Source: an uncultured archaeon
GTDB taxonomy: Archaea > Asgardarchaeota > Hermodarchaeia > Hermodarchaeales > Hermodarchaeaceae
Length of the DNA stretch: 64,000 bases
Direction of reading: 5' to 3'
Assembly: GCA_964347045.1 (NCBI GenBank)
Contig: CAYFXC010000003.1
Coordinates: 51,669-115,668, forward strand
Numbering within the stretch: position 1 is the first letter of the stretch; each line of letters opens with the position of its first letter. The notes under the pieces were generated by a model, which did not search any database, was not told where the DNA came from, and worked only from the letters and a program-made list of their open reading frames with translations. The position numbers and the translations under genes were made by a program. Below are positions 6,098 to 63,844 of this stretch, in pieces.

Positions 6098-7507
6098 ATG
6101 AAATCAGACTTGGAACCGTTTTTCAATCCAAAAACGGTTGCCGTCGTCGGAGCTTCTGCACGAAAAGCGAGTGTAGGCGGGGTGATTTTTCGTAATTTCC
6201 TCAAACCCGCCTTCAAGGGCGTAGTCTATCCCATTAACCCTCGTGCAACCGAAGTACTCGGCATTCCGAGTTATGAGCGGGTATCATCCGTTCCTGAACC
6301 TGTTGATCTCACCGTTATAGCTGTTCCCGCGGGAATTGTACCAAAAATTATGGAAGATTGTGAAGAAAAGGGGGTTAAAGCCGTCATCATTATTAGCGGC
6401 GGCTTCAAAGAAATCGGAACTGAAGGTGCCTACCTCGAAGAGCAAGTCATCCAAATCGCCAAACGAAGCGGGATTCGAGTAATTGGTCCCAATTGTATTG
6501 GTATATATGATACCAATACCGGAGTTGACACCACATTTCTTCCAGCATCTCGGATGGGAAGACCAGGAAAAGGATACATAAGCTTCATCAGTCAAAGTGG
6601 TGCATTTGCGGCAGCTGTTTTAGATATTAACGCACAATCCGGACTCGGAGTAAGCCGCGTCATCAGCTTTGGCAATAAGGCAGATGTCAACGAAATTGAT
6701 CTCATTAAGTTTCTTGGCACCGACAGGGAAACTCGAGTCATTATCGAATACCTAGAAGGACTTTCACCGAGTACAGGAAGTTCATACATCCAAACTGCAA
6801 AAATTGTAACAAGTCAAAAACCGATCATCGTTGTGAAAGCTGGACGTTCAAAACGAGGTTCCGTGGCTGCAGCTAGTCACACGGGCGCATTAGCTGGTGA
6901 TGCCCGGCTCTATGATTTTGCATTCCACCAAGCAGGAATTCTCTCAGCTCAGGACTTCGAAGATGGATTTGAAATGGCAAAAACTTTAGCAACACAGCCT
7001 CCTGCAAAAGGTAATCGCGTGCTTGTTGTCACAGATGCCGGAGGAGCAGGAGTCATGACTGTCGATGCCTGCGAAGCCCTAGGATTAACCGTTCCTGAAC
7101 CCCCTGAAAAAGAAATGCAAATTCTTCGTGAAGCTTTTCCAAGCTATTGCAGCGTCAATAATCCCATTGATCTCACCGGTGACACCGATGCCGAACGCTA
7201 TCAAATCGCTTTTGACACACTTCTTGGAACAGCTCATTATGATGGGGCCATTGCCATCGTAATGATGCAAATTCCTTTGTTAGATCTTGATATCGTCGAT
7301 CGATTAGTTGCAATTGTCCGAAAATATGACAAACCATTAGTTGCTCTAACGGCTGGAGGACGATTCACAATGAAAGGTGCTCAGCTCCTCGAAGAAGCAG
7401 GAATTCCCACCTTACCAACTCCAGCCAGAGCAGCAAAAGCCATTTGGGCGCTGGTGGAATACGGGCAACATCTGAGGAAAATCCATTCGCAAAAGAAATC
7501 AAAGTAA
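6098..7507 (+). CDS. Acetyl/acyl-CoA synthetase (ADP-forming), alpha subunit
   Basis: It carries PKTVAVVGAS, YPINP, the IISGGFKE motif and the phospho-His motif AASHTGALAGD. I prefer the internal ATG at 6098, which is preceded by GAGGGG, over the listed 6029 start. Confidence 0.8.
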   Translation: MKSDLEPFFNPKTVAVVGASARKASVGGVIFRNFLKPAFKGVVYPINPRATEVLGIPSYERVSSVPEPVDLTVIAVPAGIVPKIMEDCEEKGVKAVIIISGGFKEIGTEGAYLEEQVIQIAKRSGIRVIGPNCIGIYDTNTGVDTTFLPASRMGRPGKGYISFISQSGAFAAAVLDINAQSGLGVSRVISFGNKADVNEIDLIKFLGTDRETRVIIEYLEGLSPSTGSSYIQTAKIVTSQKPIIVVKAGRSKRGSVAAASHTGALAGDARLYDFAFHQAGILSAQDFEDGFEMAKTLATQPPAKGNRVLVVTDAGGAGVMTVDACEALGLTVPEPPEKEMQILREAFPSYCSVNNPIDLTGDTDAERYQIAFDTLLGTAHYDGAIAIVMMQIPLLDLDIVDRLVAIVRKYDKPLVALTAGGRFTMKGAQLLEEAGIPTLPTPARAAKAIWALVEYGQHLRKIHSQKKSK

Positions 7508-7607
7508 TTTTTTTTCCTTCATAAGATTGGACAACGGTACTGTTTATAATTACATAAGTTTACCATTGCTTTATTCAACTTTCCTCGTGTAGGCGAGGTG
7601 TACACTT

Positions 7608-8768
7608 TTGATCAATGTAAGTATTGTTGGTGCTGGACAAACAAAGTTCGGACGGCACAACGATTACAATTTACGTGAACTCTTCGCTTTAGCAGCCTAT
7701 GAGGCCATCGAAGACGCTGGTATTACACCCAAAGATGTTGAAGCGGCATTCATAGGTAACCTATCTGCAGATCAATTTAATCGACAATCACACATTGCTC
7801 CAATGATGGCCGATGCTGCAGGAATGACGGGAATTACTGCTACTAAATGTGAAGCTGCTTGCGCCTCGTCAGCTACGGCGTTACGAGCCGCAATTCTTGC
7901 CATCGAATCTGGGCAACATGATGTGGTCATGGCTGCGGGCGTCGAGAAGATGACTGACCTCCCGACTCCGGGGGTCATTGAGATATTAGCAATGGCGGCT
8001 GACCAGCCCTTTGAGGCAGAACCTGGAATTACGTTTCCGGGAATTTTTGCCCTCTTGGCAGTTGCTCATATGGCGAAATATGGTACAACTAAAGAGCAAA
8101 TGGCAGCGGTTGCTGTCAAGAATCATGCCAACGCGATGCACAATCCCTTAGCGCAATATCAAAAAGAAATCACTATTGATACGGTGTTATCAGCACGTCT
8201 GGTCGCTTGGCCATTGGGTCTCTTTGATTGTTCTCCCATCACTGATGGAGCTGCTGCAGTGATTCTTACACGAAATAAATTGGCGAGAAAATTCACTGAC
8301 ACTCCTGTGAAAATCAAGGCCTCTGCGCAGGCAAACGATACAATGGATATGTGTGATCGCGCTGACCTTACAACTCTCTATTCCGCAAGAATAGCCGCGC
8401 AAAGAGCATATAAACAAGCGAAGATAGGTCCACAAGATATCGACTTTGCAGAAGTTCACGACTGCTTCACTATAGCCGAAATCATTGCCACCGAAGACCT
8501 TGGCTTCTTCACACCAGGAATGGGTGGGCAAGCTGTCGAAGAGGAATATACCGCAATAGATGGCGAGTTCGCAATCAATACCAGTGGTGGACTCAAAGCC
8601 AAAGGACACCCAGTCGGTGCCACTGGGGTAGCTCAAATTATTGAATTGTACCATCAACTACGAAACGAAGCTGGTAAACGACAAGTCGATTCGCCCAACT
8701 ATGGACTTGCCCATAACGTCGGAGGGTCAGGAGCCACAGCCGTAGTCCATATTTGTGAACGATGGTGA
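7608..8768 (+). CDS. Archaeal-type thiolase (acetyl-CoA C-acetyltransferase family)
   Basis: It has the active-site Cys context CEAACASSATAL and the C-terminal motifs GHPVGATG and NVGGSGA. The start codon is TTG. Confidence 0.85.
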   Translation: MINVSIVGAGQTKFGRHNDYNLRELFALAAYEAIEDAGITPKDVEAAFIGNLSADQFNRQSHIAPMMADAAGMTGITATKCEAACASSATALRAAILAIESGQHDVVMAAGVEKMTDLPTPGVIEILAMAADQPFEAEPGITFPGIFALLAVAHMAKYGTTKEQMAAVAVKNHANAMHNPLAQYQKEITIDTVLSARLVAWPLGLFDCSPITDGAAAVILTRNKLARKFTDTPVKIKASAQANDTMDMCDRADLTTLYSARIAAQRAYKQAKIGPQDIDFAEVHDCFTIAEIIATEDLGFFTPGMGGQAVEEEYTAIDGEFAINTSGGLKAKGHPVGATGVAQIIELYHQLRNEAGKRQVDSPNYGLAHNVGGSGATAVVHICERW

Positions 8769-9166
8769 TCAAGATGAGCGATGAAACAACAATCAAAAAA
8801 TACTTTGAATTAATTAATGAGCAAAAACTGTGTGCGGTACATTGTGCAAGCTGTGATTCCCTTCATCTACCACCAAGGCTTTTTTGTCCAAATTGTAACC
8901 GCAAGACCACTGATTGGACTCAATTAAGCGGGGAAGGTACTATCCGTTCATTCACTGTCATTCACATTGCTGGAACGAAATATGATAGAGACGTCCCGTA
9001 CATCGTGACAATTGTTGCTTTGAAGGAGGGACCTTCTGTATGTGCTCGGTTGATTGGTCTTGATCCGCTCAAACCAGAGGATATCCATGTCGGTGATCCA
9101 GTTGTTGCTGACTTCGAAGAAATTCCAGAAAAGAAGACAATGCGCCTAATCTTTCGTCCTGCATAG
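8762..9166 (+). CDS. DUF35 OB-fold/zinc-ribbon protein (thiolase-associated scaffold)
   Basis: It has a Zn ribbon (CASCDS...CPNCN) followed by an OB-like C-terminus. It overlaps the thiolase stop in an ATGGTGA arrangement. Confidence 0.8.
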   Translation: MVIKMSDETTIKKYFELINEQKLCAVHCASCDSLHLPPRLFCPNCNRKTTDWTQLSGEGTIRSFTVIHIAGTKYDRDVPYIVTIVALKEGPSVCARLIGLDPLKPEDIHVGDPVVADFEEIPEKKTMRLIFRPA

Positions 9167-9192
9167 CGTTCCAACGTTCACCAAGTTCTTGA

Positions 9193-10521
9193 TTACTTCT
9201 TGAGTCCAAGATATCGAATTGTTGAAATTGCAAAGACTTTGGTGACTTTGAGTAAATCGTCAATGGGCACATATTCGTCAGCTATATGAGCAAAGGTCAT
9301 ATTTCCTGGACCATAGGCCACTGTTGATTCGATTCCTGCTTTTCGAAGTAGGCGACCGTCTGTGGCGAATGGTAATAAGAAGTGGACTGATGGCCCAGCT
9401 ATCTCGTTTGAAGCATTAAATACCGTAGTCACGAACTTGTTGTGTTCAAAGTTGCGAATTGAGTTACCTGTAAAGGACTCAATGATTTCTATTTTACAGA
9501 TTTCCGACATACCTAGCTGCTCAGCATGAGCCTGAATGAAGTCAATCATCTCATGAGGTTGTTGACCGGGTAAAATTCGAAAATCAATTTGTGTCTCACA
9601 GCGATCTGGTACAACGTTTGCGGCGACTCCTCCTGTTATTGTTCCAATGTTCATGGTGGTCGTTGTGAGTCCTTCTATTCCCGCTGAAATCGGATTGGGT
9701 TCATCTCCTTGGTGGATAAACGAGTTCATTAGTTGCGGGTCAATATTAAGGCTGGCAGCGAGTTGGTTTATAATAGCCTCGCGAGTAATAGGTGGAGGTA
9801 TCGTTGGAGGCTTATCATCTAGAAGAGCTTGAAGCAGTTTTAGCATCATCGAGATGGCATTCTTTCCTGCCCCTGGAATACTGCCATGTGCCTTCTCCCC
9901 CTTTGTGGTTACTTTCACCCAAATTGGTCCCTTCTCACCGATGTTCACTGCGAATCCAAGTTGTCCAATACCTGACGGTTCAGCAACTATTGCTGCATCT
10001 GCGTTAATTTTCTCCCAGATATTGTCAATGCACCACATTGTTCCCAGCTTGCCTTGCCGTTCCTCATCTCCCACAGCATTGAGGATGAGTGTACCCATCA
10101 AGGGGACTTCAAGATCATACAAGGCGCTGATTGCTATTGCCTGGCAAGCGATCCCTCCTTTCATATCTACTGCACCCCGCCCATAGATTCGATCATCACG
10201 AATTCTTGCCGCAAAGGGATCCACCGTCCAATCCTCTCCAGGTGGTACAACGTCCACATGACCATTGAACAGAATCCGTTTCCCCTTATTCACTTCCCAT
10301 GTCGCTACTAGATTCTCGATATTTGGGTGCGATTCAAAATACTCGGTTTGGATTCCGCGCGTTGCCAGTGTTTTACCCACACAATACGCAACTTCTGCTT
10401 CGCCTCTTGTTTTCCGGTCCCAACTGGGTATCTTAATCAGATCCTGGCATAATTTCACTAGTTCATCTCGAAGCTTATCTATGTGGTTAAGCACTTTTTC
10501 TTCCCATTCATTTACCGTCAT
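9193..10521 (-). CDS. M20-family metallopeptidase / deacylase (ArgE/DapE-like)
   Basis: It has the HVDVVP, GRGAVDMKGG and GDEE motifs. I prefer the internal ATG (MTVNEWEEKV) as the start. Confidence 0.8.
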   Translation of the reverse strand: MTVNEWEEKVLNHIDKLRDELVKLCQDLIKIPSWDRKTRGEAEVAYCVGKTLATRGIQTEYFESHPNIENLVATWEVNKGKRILFNGHVDVVPPGEDWTVDPFAARIRDDRIYGRGAVDMKGGIACQAIAISALYDLEVPLMGTLILNAVGDEERQGKLGTMWCIDNIWEKINADAAIVAEPSGIGQLGFAVNIGEKGPIWVKVTTKGEKAHGSIPGAGKNAISMMLKLLQALLDDKPPTIPPPITREAIINQLAASLNIDPQLMNSFIHQGDEPNPISAGIEGLTTTTMNIGTITGGVAANVVPDRCETQIDFRILPGQQPHEMIDFIQAHAEQLGMSEICKIEIIESFTGNSIRNFEHNKFVTTVFNASNEIAGPSVHFLLPFATDGRLLRKAGIESTVAYGPGNMTFAHIADEYVPIDDLLKVTKVFAISTIRYLGLKK

Positions 10522-10642
10522 AGCCTTTACAAAGCGACCATATCCAGATAGGTAATGAAAAACCTTGAGGGTGTTCGACGCTTCAACCAAACATCTTATA
10601 CTGGTCAAGGTTCCTCATTCTCTTAACAGGAGATTTCTCTCT

Positions 10643-11626
10643 ATGGATCAGGGAGTAAATGTCGAAGAACGATTATGCGGCATCTCAGAGAAGGCCCAAT
10701 TTGCCATGCTCTTAGACATACTTACACCCAAACCTGGAAACGTTCATCGCTACAGGGATCATCCTGATACTCGGTTTATCCATTTTGCTGCCAGCATCAC
10801 CCGATTGGGACACCCTTTACTCCAAACAGCCCAGTGGGGGTACCAATTCAGTATTAAAAATCATGAATCATCAAGAATTGGGGAACTAATTAAACTCGCT
10901 GTTCAAGCTTCAATGGAACCCCATGGAAAAAACACGCTACTTGGAACCATTCTCCTTTTTGTTCCTCTCGCGGCTGCAGCGGGTCATGAAATTACCCGAC
11001 CCCGCCAATCGAAAATGACGCTTCACCAAAGTGTAGCCCGCATTCTAAATAATACAGGTGTCGAAGATGCCATAGAACTGGTTCGGGCATTACAGATAGC
11101 TAGTCCTGGAGGCGCTATTCCTAAATCAGCTGAATGGACCGATAAGCCCCAAGCCTTTGATTTTCAATCACCGCATACAATTGAATTAATTCGACGAGAA
11201 AAGTATACCCTTTGTGATTTACAGGCGTTAGCCGCTGATTACGATTCCATTGCGCTAGAATATACAACAAATTTCGCATATACCTTTGACAAGCTTTATC
11301 CAGAAGTGGCAAAGGCTCTAAACCGCCATTCACGTACCGAGGACGCTGTTCTTGCATCTTATTTATGGGCCTTGGGTGACCGACCAGACTCATTCATTCA
11401 GCGAAAGAATGGTTCTCAAATTGCGAAAGATGTAATGCAACGGGCTCAGAAAGTCTATACCCGCATTATGAAAATGCCAGAGACCGGATGGTTAAAACAG
11501 ATAACACCCTTCGATGACTACTTACGTTCAGAAGCTTCCCAGCTAAATCCAGGAACCACTGCAGATCTACTCTCAGCAGCACTTTTTCTTGCATTACTTC
11601 TTGGTAATATAAAGTCCATACTCTGA
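10643..11626 (+). CDS. Triphosphoribosyl-dephospho-CoA synthase (CitG/MdcB) family protein
   Basis: It has a KPGNVHR motif near the N-terminus and a C-terminal NPGTTADL motif. I prefer the ATG at 10643. Confidence 0.65.
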   Translation: MDQGVNVEERLCGISEKAQFAMLLDILTPKPGNVHRYRDHPDTRFIHFAASITRLGHPLLQTAQWGYQFSIKNHESSRIGELIKLAVQASMEPHGKNTLLGTILLFVPLAAAAGHEITRPRQSKMTLHQSVARILNNTGVEDAIELVRALQIASPGGAIPKSAEWTDKPQAFDFQSPHTIELIRREKYTLCDLQALAADYDSIALEYTTNFAYTFDKLYPEVAKALNRHSRTEDAVLASYLWALGDRPDSFIQRKNGSQIAKDVMQRAQKVYTRIMKMPETGWLKQITPFDDYLRSEASQLNPGTTADLLSAALFLALLLGNIKSIL

Positions 11627-11635
11627 TGAATTCGA

Positions 11636-13126
11636 TTACGGTTCCCACTTGAAAGGATGCTTGGCATACTCTTTATCACTGAGCAATTCATCGATGCTTG
11701 GTCGTCCTTCAATGGCTCGGCGTATAGCGTGACGCATCGCTTTGTAGTTGTTGATGAGAATCCGTTTTCGGTCAACGGCCGTGGGGTGAACAAACACCGT
11801 TGCCACAATTACCAGTGTTTCTACAGCTGATTTGGGTATGAATCCTTCTTCAACTGAATCCATTACAGCTTTAGCGCATCCTGTTTGAGCTGGGCCTCCA
11901 AAAAGACTTGCTTGGTGCATGCTTCGATTAGCAACAGTAGGAACAAGCAAGGTTTCGGGTTTCACCATTAAATTAGGTTCTAAAATCGCAAGAAGGGGTT
12001 CCATTCGTTCTTTTGGTGCCGCTTTAGCCTGAGCAAACGCGTATCCAACCGGGCCATCCTTGCGGCCAATCATTAGATCAATATGGGCCACCTCAGCTCC
12101 AGTCCCTGCTAGTCCTTCACCAACCTTAAGAGAGAAGTCTTTCACTTGGTCTGGAGTAAATCCAAATGCACCAAATCGCGCTTCTAAGGGCTGTTTCGGT
12201 TCGACTTCAATAGTTACCTCTTTGGGTTTGATTTTTCCCAGTTTTTCCAGTTCTATGCGAATTTCTTCACGGTTTTCATAAGAAAGAACACCACCGAATG
12301 TCAATGGGAGCCGTGGTTTTCCAACGGGAACTCCCATCATTTTCAATCCGGCTTTTGCACCTGCTGCGCCCGAAGCGACAATTAGGCGAGTAAGTTTCTG
12401 CAACTTCAGCTGTAAAGCTCTGGCATCGGCGAAGTTGTTACTTTGAACTTTTTTGAGCATATCGACCCAAATGTCGCCAATGAGTTGTGCGCTTGCAAGA
12501 ATAGCTCCAGAACATCCTGATGCGAGTGCAGGAAATACCACTTCATCATGTCCTACTAAAACGTTGATTTTCGAGCCTACTTTTTCTAAGATTGCTAGGA
12601 TGAGCTTAAGTTGTCCGCTTGAATCTTTAATGCCCACGATATTATCAAGGTCTGCCAAGTCCTCAACGATTTGCCATGGCATATCTAGTCCAGTACATTG
12701 GGGGATGTTGTAGAGGAGAATGGGTAATCCAACATCATTGACGAGGCGGTAATGCTCATATAAACCTCGAAGCGTTGGACGCAAATAATACGGGGTGACA
12801 ACAAGACAGGCGTCTGCCCCCGCTTTTTGCGCAGACTCAACGAGGTCAATGGTTGTTTTGGTGTTACTTGCGCCTGCCCCTGCGATTACTGGGACTTTAC
12901 CTGCCGCTTCATCAACAGCGAGTTCGATGAGCAGTTTATGTTCTGCAATTGTCAAGCTTGTGAATTCACCAGTTGTGCCTGCTGGGACTAGACCAGTGAC
13001 CCCAAGGTCATCGATACAATGGCGAATGAGCCGACGGAAGACCGTTTTATCTACTTGGGATCCGTCCTTTGTAAACGGCGTAACGAGTGCAGGATTTATG
13101 CCACCTGGTTTAAACCCCATTTCCAA
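11636..13126 (-). CDS. Fusion protein: DapA/DHDPS-family class I pyruvate aldolase (N-terminal) plus formaldehyde-activating enzyme Fae (C-terminal)
   Basis: The N-terminal part has PAGTTGEFTSLT, VVTPYY and the Schiff-base Lys context VGIKDSSG. The C-terminal ~165 aa read GAEVAHIDLMIGRKDGPVG...LLVPTV...FGGPAQ...VFVHP...KHPF, which is collinear with Fae. Confidence 0.8.
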   Translation of the reverse strand: MEMGFKPGGINPALVTPFTKDGSQVDKTVFRRLIRHCIDDLGVTGLVPAGTTGEFTSLTIAEHKLLIELAVDEAAGKVPVIAGAGASNTKTTIDLVESAQKAGADACLVVTPYYLRPTLRGLYEHYRLVNDVGLPILLYNIPQCTGLDMPWQIVEDLADLDNIVGIKDSSGQLKLILAILEKVGSKINVLVGHDEVVFPALASGCSGAILASAQLIGDIWVDMLKKVQSNNFADARALQLKLQKLTRLIVASGAAGAKAGLKMMGVPVGKPRLPLTFGGVLSYENREEIRIELEKLGKIKPKEVTIEVEPKQPLEARFGAFGFTPDQVKDFSLKVGEGLAGTGAEVAHIDLMIGRKDGPVGYAFAQAKAAPKERMEPLLAILEPNLMVKPETLLVPTVANRSMHQASLFGGPAQTGCAKAVMDSVEEGFIPKSAVETLVIVATVFVHPTAVDRKRILINNYKAMRHAIRRAIEGRPSIDELLSDKEYAKHPFKWEP

Positions 13127-13143
13127 ACTCTCCTCTAGATTTG

Positions 13144-14091
13144 TTAGGGCTGAGGGATGGCTAGGTCTTTGGCTCCAATTTTGGACAGTTTCGCTTCTGG
13201 ATAATTATCTTGAATAATGTTCCGTACAATTTCAGCCCATTTGACCTTTTCACGGGCTAGAAAGCTAAGTCCCTCAATAGAAGACCAGGGTGTATATAAT
13301 GCCATACTTGGTCCCGGCTCAAACTTATAGTAAACTGGTTGGACGCACCGCGTGATTTCTGGAGCTTCATAGAAACGATTGAAGCCACCGAAACTTGGCA
13401 TCAACATTATGTGGATGTCGATGGGGAAATCTGTTGCTTGGCGAATAGCAGCTAGCTGTGGTATCGTCATGTCAGCAACAGGATTGAAACTTCCTGCACC
13501 TAGTTCTTGAAGTAATTTGCCTCCCGCCGGTGATGCATGACCTGCAAATATACTGACCTTGAATGTGATATCCTTAGGGATTTCCCCAATTTCCTTGAGT
13601 TTGTTTAGAGCCCATAGAAGTCCTTCATCAATGACTAAAAACCCTCGAAAACCTAACTCAATACCGCGTTTGATATCTGTGATTACTTCCACTAGTTTAT
13701 CGGCACCTCGAAATCGCATTCCTGAGAGTATACCATCTGGGGTTGCGACTTGACGACCTATGTCCCAGCTTGTTCGGGGACCGGGAGTTAAGATAACTTC
13801 CATTTTTGCGTCATGGGCTAGTTGAGCAAATTTCCTAAGTTCTTTGTCATCGAGCAGGGTCGCTCCCATAACTACACTAATAAGGCGGTGGACGGCGACA
13901 TCTCGCTTCTCCGACTCCTCTATCAGTGCTTCTAAGACCTCAGGGCGTTCTACACCAGAGATTTCAATACGATAGCCGGCTCCATCTGGAAACCGCTTCT
14001 CGCTTGTTGGTAAATCAAAAGCATCTTGTCCAGGTAACCCAATTTTCTCAAGGGCTTTCCGGACCTTTTCATAAGATTTCAGGCTCACCAT
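13144..14091 (-). CDS. Hypothetical enzyme-like protein (alternating alpha/beta pattern, possibly a barrel)
   Basis: This 315-aa ORF starts 18 nt downstream of the DapA-Fae stop on the same strand. I recognise no family. Confidence 0.45.
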   Translation of the reverse strand: MVSLKSYEKVRKALEKIGLPGQDAFDLPTSEKRFPDGAGYRIEISGVERPEVLEALIEESEKRDVAVHRLISVVMGATLLDDKELRKFAQLAHDAKMEVILTPGPRTSWDIGRQVATPDGILSGMRFRGADKLVEVITDIKRGIELGFRGFLVIDEGLLWALNKLKEIGEIPKDITFKVSIFAGHASPAGGKLLQELGAGSFNPVADMTIPQLAAIRQATDFPIDIHIMLMPSFGGFNRFYEAPEITRCVQPVYYKFEPGPSMALYTPWSSIEGLSFLAREKVKWAEIVRNIIQDNYPEAKLSKIGAKDLAIPQP

Positions 14092-14302: not shown

Positions 14303-15457
14303 TTGTCTGAGTTGAGACTCTTGGAGATTGATGATCTGATCACATCAGCATTGCTCATCGACAAAGACATCCTTCTTCGAAATATCCAAACAATGGCGGA
14401 AAAATCCCGCGGCAACGATATTCCCCTTCGTCCTCATGTTAAAACTCACCAATGCCTTGAAATCGCCAACCTCCAAACCGGGTATGGCGCAAAAGGGCTA
14501 ACTGTTTCTACCATTGGAGAAACATCAGTTTTCGTTATCCATGGATTCTCCGATGTAACTTTAGCCTATCCCATTATACCGGACAAATTCCCCTCACTAG
14601 TGAAATTAACTCAAAAAGCACATGTGAATGTATTAGTTGACAGTCCAACTATCATCACGATGCTGGATGCATGTTGCATCGGGGCTGATATACACCTGAA
14701 TGTATTAGTCAAAATCGATTACGGCCATCATCGATGTAGTGTTGAACCTTCAAAGACGGAAGCACTCACTATGGCTGGGCAAATAGCTTCTGCTTCTCAT
14801 CTAGCCTTTGGAGGAATTTTAACTCACGCTGGACACGCATACACAGCTAAGTCTAAGGATGAAATTAGGAATATTGCTGACACCGAACAAAATGTGATAA
14901 TCGAATTTTCTGAAAAACTTCAAAGCAATGGACTAACACTTGAAACAGTATCTATTGGGTCAACACCTACTGCCATGGCAGCACCAAAATTCAAAAAGGA
15001 GATAACTGAGATTCGTCCCGGAAACTATGTCTTTGACAATAGTCAAATCTCATTAGACTCTTGTCATCATACTGACTGTGCACTTTCTGTACTAACCAAT
15101 GTGGTAGGTGTTCAGGACTCACATATGGTTGTAGATGCAGGTGCTACAACGTTATCTAAAGACACTGGCACGACCCAAACGCTGTCAAGCTGGGGTTATG
15201 GGGTAGTTCTACATCCCAATGAAACAACCAGTTCTGCTGATGTAAAGATTGTTAATCTATCACACGAATATGGCAAGATCGCGTTCACAAAACCTTCTCC
15301 CCCTCGTCCCTTTTCGCCCGGAGATCACCTAAGAATAATTCCAAATCATTCCTGTCACCCTACTAACCTATATGATCAATACAATGTCGTTGATGACAAC
15401 CGAGTCATTGCCACCTGGCCCATCTACCGCACTCGTCTTAGCTCTAAACTAGTTTAA
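14303..15457 (+). CDS. PLP enzyme of the D-serine dehydratase-like / D-threonine aldolase family (alanine-racemase N-terminal fold)
   Basis: It has the RPHVKTHQC PLP-lysine motif and the family-typical length. Confidence 0.65.
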   Translation: MSELRLLEIDDLITSALLIDKDILLRNIQTMAEKSRGNDIPLRPHVKTHQCLEIANLQTGYGAKGLTVSTIGETSVFVIHGFSDVTLAYPIIPDKFPSLVKLTQKAHVNVLVDSPTIITMLDACCIGADIHLNVLVKIDYGHHRCSVEPSKTEALTMAGQIASASHLAFGGILTHAGHAYTAKSKDEIRNIADTEQNVIIEFSEKLQSNGLTLETVSIGSTPTAMAAPKFKKEITEIRPGNYVFDNSQISLDSCHHTDCALSVLTNVVGVQDSHMVVDAGATTLSKDTGTTQTLSSWGYGVVLHPNETTSSADVKIVNLSHEYGKIAFTKPSPPRPFSPGDHLRIIPNHSCHPTNLYDQYNVVDDNRVIATWPIYRTRLSSKLV

Positions 15458-18350: not shown

Positions 18351-19631
18351 ATGTCCTTTCTAAGAGGCGTTCTTAGCGGAGATCCTGCAAAATCAGCTGC
18401 GAAACATGAGAAACGGGCTAGAATGCATCAAGCCGAAGGTAATGAATCAAAAGCTGCCGATGAATGGGCTGCCGCAGGACGCGATTACATAAAGATTCCC
18501 GATTATCAACATGCTTATGACGCCTTTTTACAAGCAGCACAATTTTATCTTGCTGTTAAGGATGATAAGCGAGAGAATGCAATTCTTTTTGATGCCGTGG
18601 ATGCGGCTATTACAAACCAAGATTTCACAGCAGCATCAGGGGCTTTAAACCAGGTAACCCGCATAGGTACTAGAAAAAATGATGATGCACTACTGATTCG
18701 AGCTTACTCTCTCCAAACCATTCTGTTATTTGCTGCTAATGATTTAGCGAAATCGAAGCAGACTCATCGTGAGGCAGAAAAAATCGAGAAACGCTTAGGT
18801 CAGAAAAAAATTAAAACAGCTCTTTTTCCCATTGCATCCCTCCTCGTTAACCGTTTTATTGAAGGAGAGGTTGTTCCTAAGGATATTCAACTCCCCGCCC
18901 GTGTTGACGAGTCAGAAACAGTAAATCAATTAATTACAGATCTCCTCTCACTCTATCAAGATACACAATCTGCAACTCTAAAATTAAAACTGGACAAAGA
19001 AGAAGTCAAAATCAAAGAGCGCGTCTCTGGACGCGTTACAATCTCCTTTTCAGCCCCGGCACAAATTATTGACACTCAGATTTCACTTCCCTCAAATATT
19101 GCACTGCTGGAAACATTGACCATTCCCCTTGGATCAAAGAAGAAATTCAAGATTCCATTCTCACTGGAACCCCGGTTACCAGGCACCTTTGATGTCGGGC
19201 CACTGACAATCCTTTTTCAAATAGATCATCAGCAATTTCAATTTAGATCCAATCTATCCCAATTGAAAATCACTGCTGCCAAACCTCGAATTAACCTGGT
19301 CGCAAAACCGGTCATTTCTCCTCATTCTCAAGAGGAATTCGAGCTTTCTCTACGTGTTGAAAACACCAGCCATGGCGATGCCTCTGATTTAGCTATCAAT
19401 ATAAGCCTACCACCTACTCTTCTTCTCAAAACTGGGACACTAGAAAAACGTATACTCGCTCTTCCTGCCCAACAGCATGTCCAATTCCCCCTATTCCTTA
19501 TTGCTACCAAAGCAGGCACTCATGAAGGCGTAATGACGTGTATATTCCAAGGTCCAAGTGGACGAAGCCAAAAAATAGAGAATAAGTTTTCAGTAGAAAT
19601 TTTACCCCGGGTCCGAAAGGAAAAAGATTAA
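18351..19631 (+). CDS. Hypothetical protein with an all-alpha TPR/SNAP-like N-terminus and two beta-sandwich-like C-terminal modules
   Basis: The call is based on composition and a periodic pattern. There is no signal peptide. Confidence 0.45.
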   Translation: MSFLRGVLSGDPAKSAAKHEKRARMHQAEGNESKAADEWAAAGRDYIKIPDYQHAYDAFLQAAQFYLAVKDDKRENAILFDAVDAAITNQDFTAASGALNQVTRIGTRKNDDALLIRAYSLQTILLFAANDLAKSKQTHREAEKIEKRLGQKKIKTALFPIASLLVNRFIEGEVVPKDIQLPARVDESETVNQLITDLLSLYQDTQSATLKLKLDKEEVKIKERVSGRVTISFSAPAQIIDTQISLPSNIALLETLTIPLGSKKKFKIPFSLEPRLPGTFDVGPLTILFQIDHQQFQFRSNLSQLKITAAKPRINLVAKPVISPHSQEEFELSLRVENTSHGDASDLAINISLPPTLLLKTGTLEKRILALPAQQHVQFPLFLIATKAGTHEGVMTCIFQGPSGRSQKIENKFSVEILPRVRKEKD

Positions 19632-31211: not shown

Positions 31212-32393
31212 CTAAGGTAAGATGGCGACAATCCAGTCCATGATGAATGGCCAGGCTAAAAGGATGCCGACCATGAGGAGGCTGAAGGGAATAACCCATT
31301 TCCAGCTATCACGGGCGATTTGGTCAATTCGCCATCGAGAGAAGAGGGCTTTCATATTGGATAGGATCAAGACAATGGCGGTGGTTTTGACGATGAACCA
31401 GAAAGCGTAGTAAATGGCTGCAATTGCAGGATTGAGTAATAAGGGCATATTGGTGATAATCCAAGCCATATAATGTCCAGAGTTGATGGTGATCCCATGC
31501 ACGAAACCACCATTGGCAATGAAGATGAAGAAGATTTCTGGTCCAAGAGGGCCTCCCAGGAAAACGGCTGTACCCAATGCGGAGGCGAGGAGAACTTCAA
31601 AGTTATTGGAGAGTCGGAAGAAGGCAAGTTTCTTCCCGGAGAATTCGGTTTCCCAACCGCCAACAATTTCAGTTTCAGCAATGGGTGCATCAAAGGGTAT
31701 GCGTTCGGCTTCTGCTTGTGCAGCGATCAGGAAGACAATGAAGAGTCCAATGAATGCTGGGTTAAAGATTAGGGGTAACCCAAGGTTTGCTTGGTATACG
31801 ACGACGCCTGTAAGGCTCAAACTCCCTGCTACCATTCCCGCCGCAAACAGTGCGAGGAGTAACGGAATTTCATATGCGAGCATCTGGACGATGCCACGTA
31901 CTGCTCCAGTAAAGCCAAACCGGTTTGACGATGACCAGCCGGCGATAAACAGCATTATGGTGAACATAGTGCTGAAGAAGCCGATCATAAGTAAATCGCC
32001 TTCAAAATACATGATGCCCGTTACTGTAAAGAATGGCGTCTGAGAAATCGCTATCGGAACTAGCATAAGCACGGAGATGGGAATTGCCAAAGCTAGAATG
32101 GGGGTCAGCGTAAAGCCGATTTTATCTGCGGCTACTGGGGTTACATCCTCTTTAGCCATCAACTTGACAAAATCTGCGAAGGGTTGAAGGATGCCTCGCC
32201 AGCCTGTATGTAATGGACCGATGCGGTGGTGTTGGTCGGCATAGAATTTGCGGTCAATCCATTCAATATAGAAGGCATATCCTGTTAGGAACAGGAACCC
32301 AGGAAAGATTATAATCATCAGTAGTGTGACGATTGCATTCAATGGTGGGGGTAATAGCACCTGCACATTGCGCACTCTCCAGTGGGTCATCAA
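31212..32393 (-). CDS. Integral membrane subunit MbhM/EchB/NuoH-like
   Basis: It is a polytopic protein with NuoH-type motifs (DRKFYADQHHRIGP.., AEAERIPFD, E..GG..TEFSG). Confidence 0.85.
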   Translation of the reverse strand: MMTHWRVRNVQVLLPPPLNAIVTLLMIIIFPGFLFLTGYAFYIEWIDRKFYADQHHRIGPLHTGWRGILQPFADFVKLMAKEDVTPVAADKIGFTLTPILALAIPISVLMLVPIAISQTPFFTVTGIMYFEGDLLMIGFFSTMFTIMLFIAGWSSSNRFGFTGAVRGIVQMLAYEIPLLLALFAAGMVAGSLSLTGVVVYQANLGLPLIFNPAFIGLFIVFLIAAQAEAERIPFDAPIAETEIVGGWETEFSGKKLAFFRLSNNFEVLLASALGTAVFLGGPLGPEIFFIFIANGGFVHGITINSGHYMAWIITNMPLLLNPAIAAIYYAFWFIVKTTAIVLILSNMKALFSRWRIDQIARDSWKWVIPFSLLMVGILLAWPFIMDWIVAILP

Positions 32394-40888: not shown

Positions 40889-42094
40889 TTAACGGCGCCA
40901 AGCTTTGATTCGGTTCCGTTCTTCTCGACTCTTCTCTTGGAACCATGCCCAGGGCTTCTCTTCTTGCTTCCCATCGGGGTATGAAAGTATAATTCGGTCA
41001 GTGCAGGAGAAGCAGGGGTCTATCGAAGCCAGGGCGATGGGGATGTCGGCGATTTTGCCGCCTTTGAGCATTTCGATGACGCTGGGGATGTTGGCGTAGG
41101 TGGGGGCGCGGGCTTTGTGGCGTTCGGGTTTGTCGGTGCCGTTGCTGACGACGTAGTGGAGGACTTCGCCGCGGGGGGCTTCGAAGGTGCTGAGGGCGTG
41201 GCCGGGTGGGATGCGGCGGGGGGTGCGGGTGCTGATGTCGCCTGTGGGGAGGGTGGTGAGCCAGTGGGTGACGGTGGTGCAGGCGTCGAGGGTTTCGAGC
41301 ATGCGGACGACGACGCGGCCGGCGACGTCGCACATGTCGGAGGTGCGGACTTCCCAGGTGGTGCCGAGGGTTTCTTGGTAGGGGGTGCGGGGTTGGGTGG
41401 CGCGGACGTCCCAGTCGATGTTGGAGGCGCGGGCGGTGGGTCCGGTGGCGCAGAGGGCTTTGCCGACGTCGGTTTTGAGGATGCCGACGCCGATGGCGCG
41501 GTCGAGGATCGTTTGTTCGGCTAACACGAGTTTGATGTAGTGGTTGACGCGGTCTTTGATTTTTTCCAGGCGGTCTACCATGCTGGGGATTTGGCTTTTC
41601 TCGATGTCGTGGCGGACGCCGCCGATGATGTTGTTGGCGTAGTTGACGCGGTTCCCACAGATTTCTTCGATCATGTCCATGCTTAATTCGCGGTCCCGCC
41701 AGGAATAATGGAACAGGGTATCCCAGCCGATTTCGTGGCCGGCTATGCCGAGCCAGAGGATGTGGCTGTGGATGCGGTTGAGCTCGTTCATGATGGCACG
41801 AATGTACAAACCCCGTTTGGGAACATCCAAGTCCAGAATCTCTTCGACGGCTTGAACATATGTTGTGGTGTGGGCTTGAGAGCAAATCCCGCAAATGCGT
41901 TCGGCGAGGTAAATGTTTTGGCTAAAACTTCGACTTTCAAAGGCTTTTTCGATGCCGCGATGGACATAGCCGATTCGCGCTTCGACGTCGACAACAATTT
42001 CTCCGTCGACGGTGATGGTGAAGTTTTCCGGCTCCTTGAGTGCGGGGTGTTGGGGACCGATGGGGATGGTCATCGTTGTGGGTGGTTTAGCCAT
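40889..42094 (-). CDS. Group 4 (Mbh/Ech-type) [NiFe]-hydrogenase large subunit, NuoD homologue
   Basis: Both Ni-Fe ligand motifs are retained: RICGICSQAH near the N-terminus and DPCFSCTDR near the C-terminus. A tail of about 34 aa follows the second motif. Confidence 0.9.
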   Translation of the reverse strand: MAKPPTTMTIPIGPQHPALKEPENFTITVDGEIVVDVEARIGYVHRGIEKAFESRSFSQNIYLAERICGICSQAHTTTYVQAVEEILDLDVPKRGLYIRAIMNELNRIHSHILWLGIAGHEIGWDTLFHYSWRDRELSMDMIEEICGNRVNYANNIIGGVRHDIEKSQIPSMVDRLEKIKDRVNHYIKLVLAEQTILDRAIGVGILKTDVGKALCATGPTARASNIDWDVRATQPRTPYQETLGTTWEVRTSDMCDVAGRVVVRMLETLDACTTVTHWLTTLPTGDISTRTPRRIPPGHALSTFEAPRGEVLHYVVSNGTDKPERHKARAPTYANIPSVIEMLKGGKIADIPIALASIDPCFSCTDRIILSYPDGKQEEKPWAWFQEKSREERNRIKAWRR

Positions 42095-62650: not shown

Positions 62651-63844
62651 TCAGTTCTCATTTTCGAAACAATAGGTTGTGGTTTGAAATTTGTTGGTAA
62701 GCGCATGCACTTCTTTTTTGACTTGTTTACGATCGGCTCCCTTAAGGCGTTTGGCGATTAATTGTGCAATAACTGGCATTTGCTCGTTTTTCATACCCCG
62801 CCGTGTAATTTCTTGTGACCCTAAGCGCACGCCTGCATCCGCAATGATATCTGCTGCTTCTAATTGGGCACAGAATTTTTGTCCCTGGGCATAGTTTTCT
62901 ACTTGCAATAATACTTGATGTGACTTTGTATATCCCCAATCTTCTCCAATTACCGGAATGTTCATCTCTACTAACGCTTGAGCTAACCTTTGTGAATTCT
63001 CGACAACCTGTTTTGCATAGTTTTTCCCAAAAGTGAGCAATTCAGCTAATGCAATAGCTAATGCTGCGACTCGATGATGATGGTAGTTATCAACTAGCAC
63101 AGGATAAGGACGTAATGTCAAATCAATTTGCTCAGCTAGTTCTGGATCTTTTTTCACTAGTACAATTCCTCCTTGAGGACCAAAAAACGTCTTATGTGTA
63201 CTCCCTAACATGATCTGTGCTCCTTCTTTGAAGGGGTTCTGGAACTGTTCACCTGCAATAAGACCAAGAACGTGTGATGCATCGTAAACTAATGTTGTTT
63301 CTACTTCTTTGCAAATTCGTGTAAGTTCAGCCACGGGATGGGGTTTCAAAAAAAAACTTGCCCCTAAGATTACAAGACGTGGACGTACACGTTCAATTAG
63401 CTCAATAGCACGCTTTACGTTCATTGTATACCGATCTGATAGATATGGAAAATAGTGAACCTCAAGTGGAAAACGTGCTTGTAGGTTCAATGGATATCCG
63501 CCGTTATCAAAATGTGAAATAACGATCGGGTCATTCGGTTGACACAAACCCATAATCACTGACATCAATGAAAGGTGTCCGGATAGGGGTCGAACATTAG
63601 CATATTGGGCGTGAAAAAGTTTCGTTGCGGCTTTAATTGCTAATTCCTCAACCTTCCTAGAATATTTTTGCCCACCATACCATGGTTCATCCCATGCATA
63701 TCGGTGTCCAAAATCAGAAGCTAGCATTGCCCGGACTTGTGGGCTGGTTAAATTTTCTGAGGGAATTAGGTTCAAACAATTCTGTCGCCATTGCTCGTGT
63801 TCACGAACGATTGAATGGATTGTTTGAGCAATTTCTGCACACAT
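62651..63844 (-). CDS. glyA: Serine hydroxymethyltransferase (archaeal type)
   Basis: It has LIPSENLTSP and the PLP-lysine motif GSTHKTFFGPQGG. Confidence 0.9.
   Translation of the reverse strand: MCAEIAQTIHSIVREHEQWRQNCLNLIPSENLTSPQVRAMLASDFGHRYAWDEPWYGGQKYSRKVEELAIKAATKLFHAQYANVRPLSGHLSLMSVIMGLCQPNDPIVISHFDNGGYPLNLQARFPLEVHYFPYLSDRYTMNVKRAIELIERVRPRLVILGASFFLKPHPVAELTRICKEVETTLVYDASHVLGLIAGEQFQNPFKEGAQIMLGSTHKTFFGPQGGIVLVKKDPELAEQIDLTLRPYPVLVDNYHHHRVAALAIALAELLTFGKNYAKQVVENSQRLAQALVEMNIPVIGEDWGYTKSHQVLLQVENYAQGQKFCAQLEAADIIADAGVRLGSQEITRRGMKNEQMPVIAQLIAKRLKGADRKQVKKEVHALTNKFQTTTYCFENEN

Follow-up and report, generated by a model that had tools for sequence, protein, structure and literature searches.

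The 64-kb stretch of DNA analysed here (the window) comes from an uncultured archaeon of the Hermodarchaeaceae, and carries on its minus strand a gene in which an aldolase domain of the DHDPS/NAL family is joined to a formaldehyde-activating enzyme (Fae) domain. This DHDPS-Fae fusion gene is the second gene of a two-gene unit, whose features are as follows (nt, nucleotides; aa, amino acids):

11636..13120, minus strand, stop codon included: DHDPS-Fae fusion gene, 494 aa from an ATG at 13118..13120

12299..13108, minus strand: DHDPS/NAL-family class I aldolase domain (Pfam PF00701, residues 7-276 of the 496-aa form, E 6.7e-72)

12125..12298, minus strand: inter-domain segment of ~58 aa, in which several positions are conserved (alignment consensus ELEKLGKI..P.E.RF...TP..I.DF)

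11651..12124, minus strand: complete Fae domain (PF08714, residues 335-492 of the 496-aa form, E 9.3e-56)

13128..13135, minus strand: Shine-Dalgarno-like GAGGAGAG, read from the sequence, 7 nt 5' of the fusion ATG and inside the 23-nt spacer that follows the partner gene

13144..14091, minus strand: TIM-315, a 315-aa protein predicted to form a (beta/alpha)8 barrel and without a Pfam match, in the same direction as the fusion gene and immediately upstream of it

The open reading frame (ORF) listing of the window gave the fusion gene as an ORF at 11636..13126 (minus strand) that opens on a TTG and encodes 496 aa, an alternative to the ATG form; the ATG at 13118..13120 is the likely start, and fusion homologues were mostly 492-496 aa long among the matches listed. 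TIM-315, the first gene of the unit, ends 17 nt before the TTG and 23 nt before the ATG. A first-pass annotation of this DNA had placed the 315-aa gene downstream of the fusion, but as the fusion gene lies on the minus strand the 315-aa gene is upstream of it. The same annotation had described one ORF with two complete domains, and this was borne out by Pfam, by NCBIfam and by the ORF itself, which is a single uninterrupted gene with neither frameshift nor stop codon between the domains. All of the motifs quoted there (GTTGE, PYY, GIKDSSG, EVAHIDLMIG and KHPF) were found in the fusion protein, and the codons of the Schiff-base Lys (AAA, 12626..12628) and of the Fae His (CAT, 12083..12085) were checked in the DNA. 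An identical fusion protein is encoded on two contigs of the sequence collection, of which the one displayed is a Logan assembly of run ERR2564004, and both domains were present in a single protein in all of the best 120 homologue clusters, at 60-91% identity. These findings establish the fusion as real and rule out both a frameshift and an artefact of assembly.

Profile analysis of the C-terminal domain agreed with its description as a complete Fae domain. PF08714 matched with 188.7 bits (cut-off 27) over profile positions 1-158 of 159, TIGR03126 (Fae) matched with 195.2 bits (cut-off 118), and the Fae of M. extorquens (1Y5Y) could be aligned over 162 residues with an E-value of 1.7e-31. The AHIDL motif with its His and Asp, LEPNL, GPAQ and the RP...HPF tail are common to the window Fae and the M. 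extorquens enzyme; the catalytic roles of these motifs are reportedly those described with the 1Y5Y and 1Y60 structures. The best explanation of this domain, as judged from its sequence, is a working Fae (EC 4.2.1.147) that interconverts free formaldehyde and methylene-tetrahydromethanopterin (methylene-H4MPT).

The fusion of Fae to a formaldehyde-releasing lyase has a precedent in Fae-Hps of Methanosarcina and other methanogens (NF009833). As in DHDPS-Fae, Fae is there joined to a carbon-carbon lyase and formaldehyde is kept H4MPT-bound beside it. In Fae-Hps, however, the lyase is C-terminal and is a metal-dependent 3-hexulose-6-phosphate synthase (Hps) of the orotidine monophosphate decarboxylase fold, whereas that of the window protein is N-terminal and a class I Schiff-base pyruvate aldolase. 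The NF009833 model matched the fusion protein only over positions 2-161 of 392, with 162 bits against a cut-off of 274; the Fae part was full-length and there was no Hps domain. Since the match runs through the Fae part only, DHDPS-Fae is distinct from Fae-Hps, as the first-pass annotation had supposed.

Residue and neighbour counts were made on a set of 94 related loci with 111 fused genes from at least 10 phylum-level groups (∼1.3 Mb), and on 121 close homologues. The aldolase catalytic apparatus, which had been annotated as intact, is conserved as a Lys/Thr/Tyr/Tyr set: the equivalents of E. coli K161, Y133, T44 and T45 are invariant in the close homologues and that of Y107 is present in 118 of the 121, while 109 of the 111 fused genes keep the Schiff-base Lys, and in nearly every tandem pair both members do. 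Arg138 of E. coli DHDPS binds the carboxylate of aspartate-semialdehyde and is needed for activity. The codon at this position of the window gene was read in the DNA as TGT (Cys, 12695..12697). Close homologues carry Cys (110), Val (7), Thr (2) or Ala (2) there, and the 111 fused genes from other genomes carry Cys (71), Val (22), Thr (10), Ala (3), Leu (3), Met (1) or Tyr (1); Arg was never found in either set. The 121 close homologues further depart from E. coli DapA at N248 and D187. Most DapA-type proteins of ∼295 aa, as seen in 150 representatives from an exhaustive search, carry the motif YN[VI]P[GS]RTG, and the fused clade departs from DapA at five motifs:

YNIPQ[CV]TG in the fused clade, YN[VI]P[GS]RTG in DapA (at R138)

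PY[YF]L[KR]P in the fused clade, PYYN[KR]P in DapA

GIKDSS in the fused clade, G[IV]KEA[ST] in DapA

GHDE in the fused clade, SGDD in DapA

ILAS in the fused clade, ISV[ATV] in DapA

Among the 121 close homologues the pocket residues GHDE, KDSS and ILAS do not vary. A few unfused proteins of ∼298 aa (P0252, P0296 and P0379) have the fused-clade motifs as well.

A genuine lysine-pathway DapA (EC 4.3.3.7), fused by chance to a housekeeping Fae so that the two activities are metabolically unconnected, would account for several of these results. The fusion protein passed the NCBIfam dapA model TIGR00674, by the narrow margin of 230.7 bits over a cut-off of 206.15; all of its closest solved structures are DHDPS entries, with E-values down to 2.5e-50; and most naming sources give it the name of the lysine enzyme. 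It shares the fold of the DapA proteins of E. coli (1DHP) and B. anthracis (1XKY), is 34% identical to E. coli DapA, and has the same intact Lys161/Tyr133/Thr44/Tyr107 set. DapA differs in having Arg138, where the fusion mostly has Cys, Val, Thr or Ala, and the fusion has its distinct motif signature and the attached Fae. A phmmer search with E. coli DapB as query, run over the 64-kb window and the 94 related loci, detected no homologue, although dapA need not cluster with dapB. The assignment as DapA is doubted because the Arg is absent throughout the clade and no dapB lies nearby in the 94 loci, and the case of an ordinary DapA with its lysine-pathway context elsewhere, which the first-pass annotation had named as fatal to its own reading, thus tends to fall away. 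The differences at the N248 and D187 positions, and conserved neighbours that are uncharacterised TIM barrels and not lysine-pathway genes, likewise stand against a chance fusion, which we consider very unlikely. That the protein just passes the dapA equivalog model is most simply ascribed to general family similarity, and the N-terminal domain is probably a class I pyruvate aldolase other than the lysine-pathway DapA.

Other members of the DHDPS family were approached in the same way. N-acetylneuraminate lyase, the archaeal 2-keto-3-deoxy-(phospho)gluconate (KD(P)G) aldolase and YagE/YjhH share with the fusion a pyruvate Schiff-base chemistry, which in them acts on aldehydes other than aspartate-semialdehyde, and a residue other than Arg at the R138 position. 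The fusion protein nevertheless fell far below the cut-offs of the N-acetylneuraminate lyase, KD(P)G aldolase and HpaI-type models (nanA, 136.5 versus 382 bits; Arch_KDGaldase, 101 versus 390; HpaI-NOT-DapA, 167 versus 396.7), and below that of PRK04147 (149 versus 281). The fusion resembles N-acetylneuraminate lyase in its GxDE and K-x-[ST] motifs; the GHDE, K-D-S and ILAS of the fused clade align with GYDE, K-Q-T and S208 of the E. coli lyase, where they belong to the sugar-binding constellation. This is only a hint that a hydroxylated aldehyde may enter the pocket of the fusion.

Among Asgard archaea, Lokiarchaeota and Heimdall-, Hermod-, Hod- and Thorarchaeota carry the fusion, and beyond them it occurs in Bathyarchaeia, Korarchaeota, Thermoplasmata and Anaerolineae/Chloroflexota; other bacterial carriers are rare, with one genome each from Thermodesulfobacteriota and Spirochaetota and two from Myxococcota. 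The nearest relatives of the window fusion are labelled Promethearchaeota, Hodarchaeota or Hermodarchaeota, and the fused family extends down to 35% identity. This host range overlaps the lineages in which H4MPT-linked C1 genes have been reported, namely Bathyarchaeota, Thorarchaeota, Thermoplasmatales, Chloroflexi and Deltaproteobacteria (PMC5020050), and fits the use of H4MPT. Where a source gives the fusion a name, this is mostly 4-hydroxy-tetrahydrodipicolinate synthase and in a few cases formaldehyde-activating enzyme. Literature searches pairing Fae or tetrahydromethanopterin with DapA-type names or with 4-hydroxy-2-oxobutanoate found no paper describing the fusion, and a large survey of Bathyarchaeia, in which fae is widespread and interpreted as detoxification, does not mention it (PMC10321748). 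DHDPS-Fae is a Fae fusion with no earlier description, carried under the label DapA by most sources that give it a name. Lysine-pathway reconstructions for Bathyarchaeia and Asgard archaea that rest on this label may be wrong, and the widespread bathyarchaeal fae of that survey may in fact be DHDPS-Fae.

Our preferred reading, which we hold tentatively, is that DHDPS-Fae is a formaldehyde-coupled pyruvate aldolase with its Fae, working in a conserved and uncharacterised module with a TIM barrel protein. The aldolase domain would form a Lys-pyruvate Schiff base and enamine, as every enzyme of the DHDPS/NAL family does, and by analogy with Fae-Hps would catalyse the reaction pyruvate + HCHO <-> 4-hydroxy-2-oxobutanoate. 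The fused Fae domain would then catalyse HCHO + H4MPT <-> methylene-H4MPT, so that a single particle would both handle toxic free formaldehyde and either trap or supply it, as Fae-Hps does. Formaldehyde as the aldolase substrate is suggested by analogy, the direction of flux and the role of the TIM barrel partner are inferred, and the 4-hydroxy-2-oxobutanoate reaction is the most economical guess. The recurrence of the fusion and its partner across anaerobic archaea and bacteria points to an undescribed formaldehyde-linked pathway. Natural class I formaldehyde aldolases would be of direct interest for synthetic C1 assimilation, for example in the engineered homoserine cycle, one step of which is a 4-hydroxy-2-oxobutanoate aldolase reaction.

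The Fae domains of the fused genes occur in three forms. The complete form, to which the window gene belongs, is found in 45 single-copy genes of Bathyarchaeia, Loki and the Hod/Hermod group. Form B (29 genes) is devoid of the His and the C-terminal tail and keeps the loops, while form A-del (31 genes) retains both of these but has neither the LEPNL loop, which is deleted, nor GPAQ. B and A-del mostly stand in tandem, B followed by A, in Chloroflexi, Thor, Thermoplasmata, Korarchaeota and others. Such tandem DHDPS-Fae pairs lie, in the related loci, at:

L011: 9072-10502 and 11017-12486

L013: 8001-9290 and 9287-10684

L050, L054, L057, L066, L091 and others

Both copies keep both domains, the aldolase included. 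Fae is a pentamer with its sites between subunits. As B and A-del lose complementary features, the tandem pair looks like a subfunctionalised heteromer. The persistence of the fusion down to 35% identity and through duplication marks the two domains, on present alignments, as tightly tied.

One tandem pair stands apart. In the archaeon GCA_003560875.1 (L014), the copies at 6544-8004 and 8001-9449 have lost the Schiff-base Lys (ALADSS and GILDAT) and other catalytic aldolase residues as well, and no further such case occurs among the 111 fused genes. The pair is immediately preceded by a RibD_C (DHFR-fold) gene, and an IF-2B isomerase gene and a class II aldolase gene lie downstream. A pair that persists with neither Schiff-base Lys would suit the view that the Fae alone matters, removing the formaldehyde of Hps in pentose synthesis or that of demethylations, and that the DHDPS-like domain is mainly an oligomerisation scaffold; the detoxification reading of the widespread bathyarchaeal fae (PMC10321748) is also in keeping with it. 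The Lys and the catalytic set are nevertheless kept in 109 of the 111 fused genes, in almost all tandem pairs in both members, and invariant pocket motifs would be superfluous in a scaffold, so that this view, too, seems to us very unlikely.

The partner gene was analysed likewise. TIM-315 had no match in Pfam, NCBIfam or the PDB sequences. Weak and non-significant matches to Peptidase_U32 were obtained with 12 of 63 TIM-315 members (best E 0.056); Peptidase_U32 is a TIM-barrel family that includes anaerobic hydroxylases, which is a lead only. TIM-315 has 2296 homologues, and those of Asgard archaea, Bathyarchaeia and Chloroflexi are 65-70% identical to one another. It adjoins the fusion in 19 of the 94 loci, in five lineages, and stands beside DHDPS-Fae genes in Chloroflexi, Bathyarchaeia, Thermoplasmata and Myxococcota. 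When TIM-315 was instead the starting point, 80 metagenome loci were retrieved; a fusion gene lay within 6 kb in 53 of them, or in 47 of the 61 whose flanks were long enough. Thus, what the first-pass annotation had called an unknown alpha/beta enzyme proved to be a conserved partner of the fusion (19/94 and 53/80 loci), its supposed downstream position being the part that did not stand. An AF2 model of TIM-315 (pLDDT 88) is a (beta/alpha)8 barrel, and its best Foldseek matches were class II metal aldolases (E 3e-8 to 1e-6), namely YdjI (6OFU), AgaY (1GVF), FbaA and the sulfofructose-phosphate aldolase 8Q57, followed by methylisocitrate lyase, PanB and ketose 3-epimerases; these top matches are weak, with TM values of 0.43-0.57 and 9-14% identity. 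Class II metal aldolases thus have the (beta/alpha)8 barrel in common with TIM-315, but no match at the level of Pfam, NCBIfam or PDB sequences. Invariant residues of TIM-315 include His (H68, H185 and H227), Asp, Glu and ∼11 Arg. The model suggests a resemblance to sugar-phosphate class II aldolases and epimerases at the fold level only.

A second family, P428, takes the place of TIM-315 by the fusion gene in 37 of the 94 loci. P428 proteins are ∼428 aa long, have no Pfam domain, and form at least 8000 clusters, all named 'hypothetical'. Examples directly upstream of the fusion or divergent from it are:

L045: 1219-2505, plus strand

L042, L048, L069, L007 and others

In Loki, Heimdall and two Chloroflexi loci P428 is on the same strand as the fusion, no more than 26 nt separating the two in 9 of 11 loci, and in Bathyarchaeia it is mostly divergent. 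No match was found in Pfam, NCBIfam or the PDB. Profile-profile comparison with TIM-315 (hhalign E 6.2e-5, probability 65%, 251 columns) shows P428, as a sequence-based assignment, to be a distant TIM-315 paralogue with a helical N-terminal extension. Structure prediction for P428 was limited to homologues at least 79% identical to the query and for that reason gave a poor model (pLDDT 71), with which Foldseek returned nothing below E 0.03. P428 is not encoded in the 64-kb window; a 426-aa window protein (18351..19631) was considered as a relative and rejected as unrelated.

These partner families bring in the main rival to our reading, a chain-building module. TIM-315, P428 or both would here add formaldehyde to a sugar phosphate or remove it, in the manner of Hps or a class II aldolase; Fae would supply or trap the formaldehyde through methylene-H4MPT; and the DHDPS-like domain would join pyruvate to the resulting sugar aldehyde, giving a 2-keto-3-deoxy sugar acid, or cleave such an acid (for example C3 + C1 -> C4 and then, with pyruvate, -> C7, like 3-deoxy-D-arabino-heptulosonate 7-phosphate, DAHP). 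The TIM-315 fold is nearest to class II aldolases acting on sugar phosphates (YdjI, tagatose- and fructose-bisphosphate, sulfofructose-phosphate) and to ketose 3-epimerases, with the invariant His, Asp, Glu and Arg residues given above; its linkage to the fusion holds in both search directions, and its distant paralogue P428 is also glued to the fusion gene. Transaldolase-family genes lie upstream in three or four Chloroflexi loci: a transaldolase/FSA-family gene directly precedes TIM-315 in L011 and L054 and is one gene away from it in L073. In the L073 operon, from Anaerolineae, a xylose-isomerase-like TIM-barrel gene (7723-8577, plus strand; AP_endonuc_2, E 8e-27) is placed between two DHDPS-Fae genes, downstream of TIM-315. 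The aldolase pocket motifs, invariant and partly like those of N-acetylneuraminate lyase, are also consistent with such a module. However, the fold matches are weak, neither TIM-315 nor P428 could be linked to another family by sequence, conserved genes of the shikimate or pentose pathways were not found near the fusion in the neighbours examined, and any specific route is speculative. A chain-building role suits the partner fold and the invariant pocket better than formation of 4-hydroxy-2-oxobutanoate does, yet is the more speculative proposal, and we regard it as unlikely.

For the formaldehyde-coupled pyruvate aldolase, to which we return as the preferred reading, several of the above observations weigh on the other side. 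TIGR00674 still scores above its cut-off, and a pocket partly like that of N-acetylneuraminate lyase hints at a larger polyhydroxy aldehyde as the better-suited substrate than formaldehyde. The barrel model of TIM-315 hints at sugar-phosphate chemistry outside the 4-hydroxy-2-oxobutanoate scheme, as do the transaldolase-family neighbours in Chloroflexi. Furthermore, neither tandem copy of L014 has the Schiff-base Lys, and in the lineages with tandem pairs neither Fae domain has the full canonical feature set.

In a wider form of the proposal, the fusion, TIM-315 and P428 together would constitute an undescribed route linking central carbon with the Wood-Ljungdahl pool of methylene-H4MPT by formaldehyde-level aldol chemistry in Asgard archaea, Bathyarchaeia and anaerobic Chloroflexi. 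Such a route might run through pyruvate + HCHO -> 4-hydroxy-2-oxobutanoate, and on to homoserine, or through C1 + C3 -> C4 followed by addition of pyruvate to give a 2-keto-3-deoxy-sugar-acid; we consider it doubtful as a whole. TIM-315 and P428 comprise thousands of clusters; gene order links them to the fusion in archaea and bacteria alike, their archaeal and bacterial members share 60-70% identity, and their function is therefore directly testable. The hosts are among the most abundant microbes of sediments and include the closest known relatives of eukaryotes.

The two-gene unit of the window is flanked on either side by genes of the opposite orientation:

14303..15457, plus strand: D-Ser-dehydratase/D-Thr-aldolase-like pyridoxal phosphate (PLP) enzyme, with Ala_racemase_N and D-ser_dehydrat domains and a weak BhcC-like match, divergent from the two-gene unit

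10565..11626, plus strand: CitG-like gene (ATP:dephospho-CoA triphosphoribosyl transferase family), convergent with the fusion gene

The two domains of the PLP enzyme confirmed the identity given to it by the first-pass annotation. The three-gene neighbourhood with an amino- and hydroxy-acid theme proposed there did not hold up: the PLP gene is lineage-specific, being found beside the fusion in 5 of 9 Hod/Hermod loci and nowhere else in the 94 loci, and TIM-315 is unlike amino-acid enzymes. The CitG-like neighbour is conserved in the closest Asgard relatives (Hod group) only; CitG-like genes sit in bacterial H4MPT gene islands, so that this one may belong to methanopterin biosynthesis, which a literature search could not confirm. 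In Bathyarchaeia a neighbour of the fusion encodes a tRNA methyltransferase, and no recurrent pathway was found among 20 proteins from the wider operon neighbours in Chloroflexi, Heimdall and other loci.

An M20-family peptidase is encoded near the fusion at 9193..10608 (minus strand), and related M20 genes occur within a few kb in three Thorarchaeota loci. The 64-kb window holds no lysine-pathway genes and no recognisable genes of the methanopterin C1 pathway, and is otherwise housekeeping in content. Serine hydroxymethyltransferase is encoded at 62651..63844 (minus strand), and two subunits of a complex-I-like/NiFe-hydrogenase-like membrane complex at 31212..32393 and 40889..42094 (both minus strand). 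The 426-aa protein encoded at 18351..19631 (plus strand) gave only weak matches to trafficking families of eukaryotic type, SNAP (E 3e-4) and TRAPPC13_C (E 4e-4), is conserved in Hod/Hermod relatives, and may be an Asgard 'eukaryotic signature' protein.

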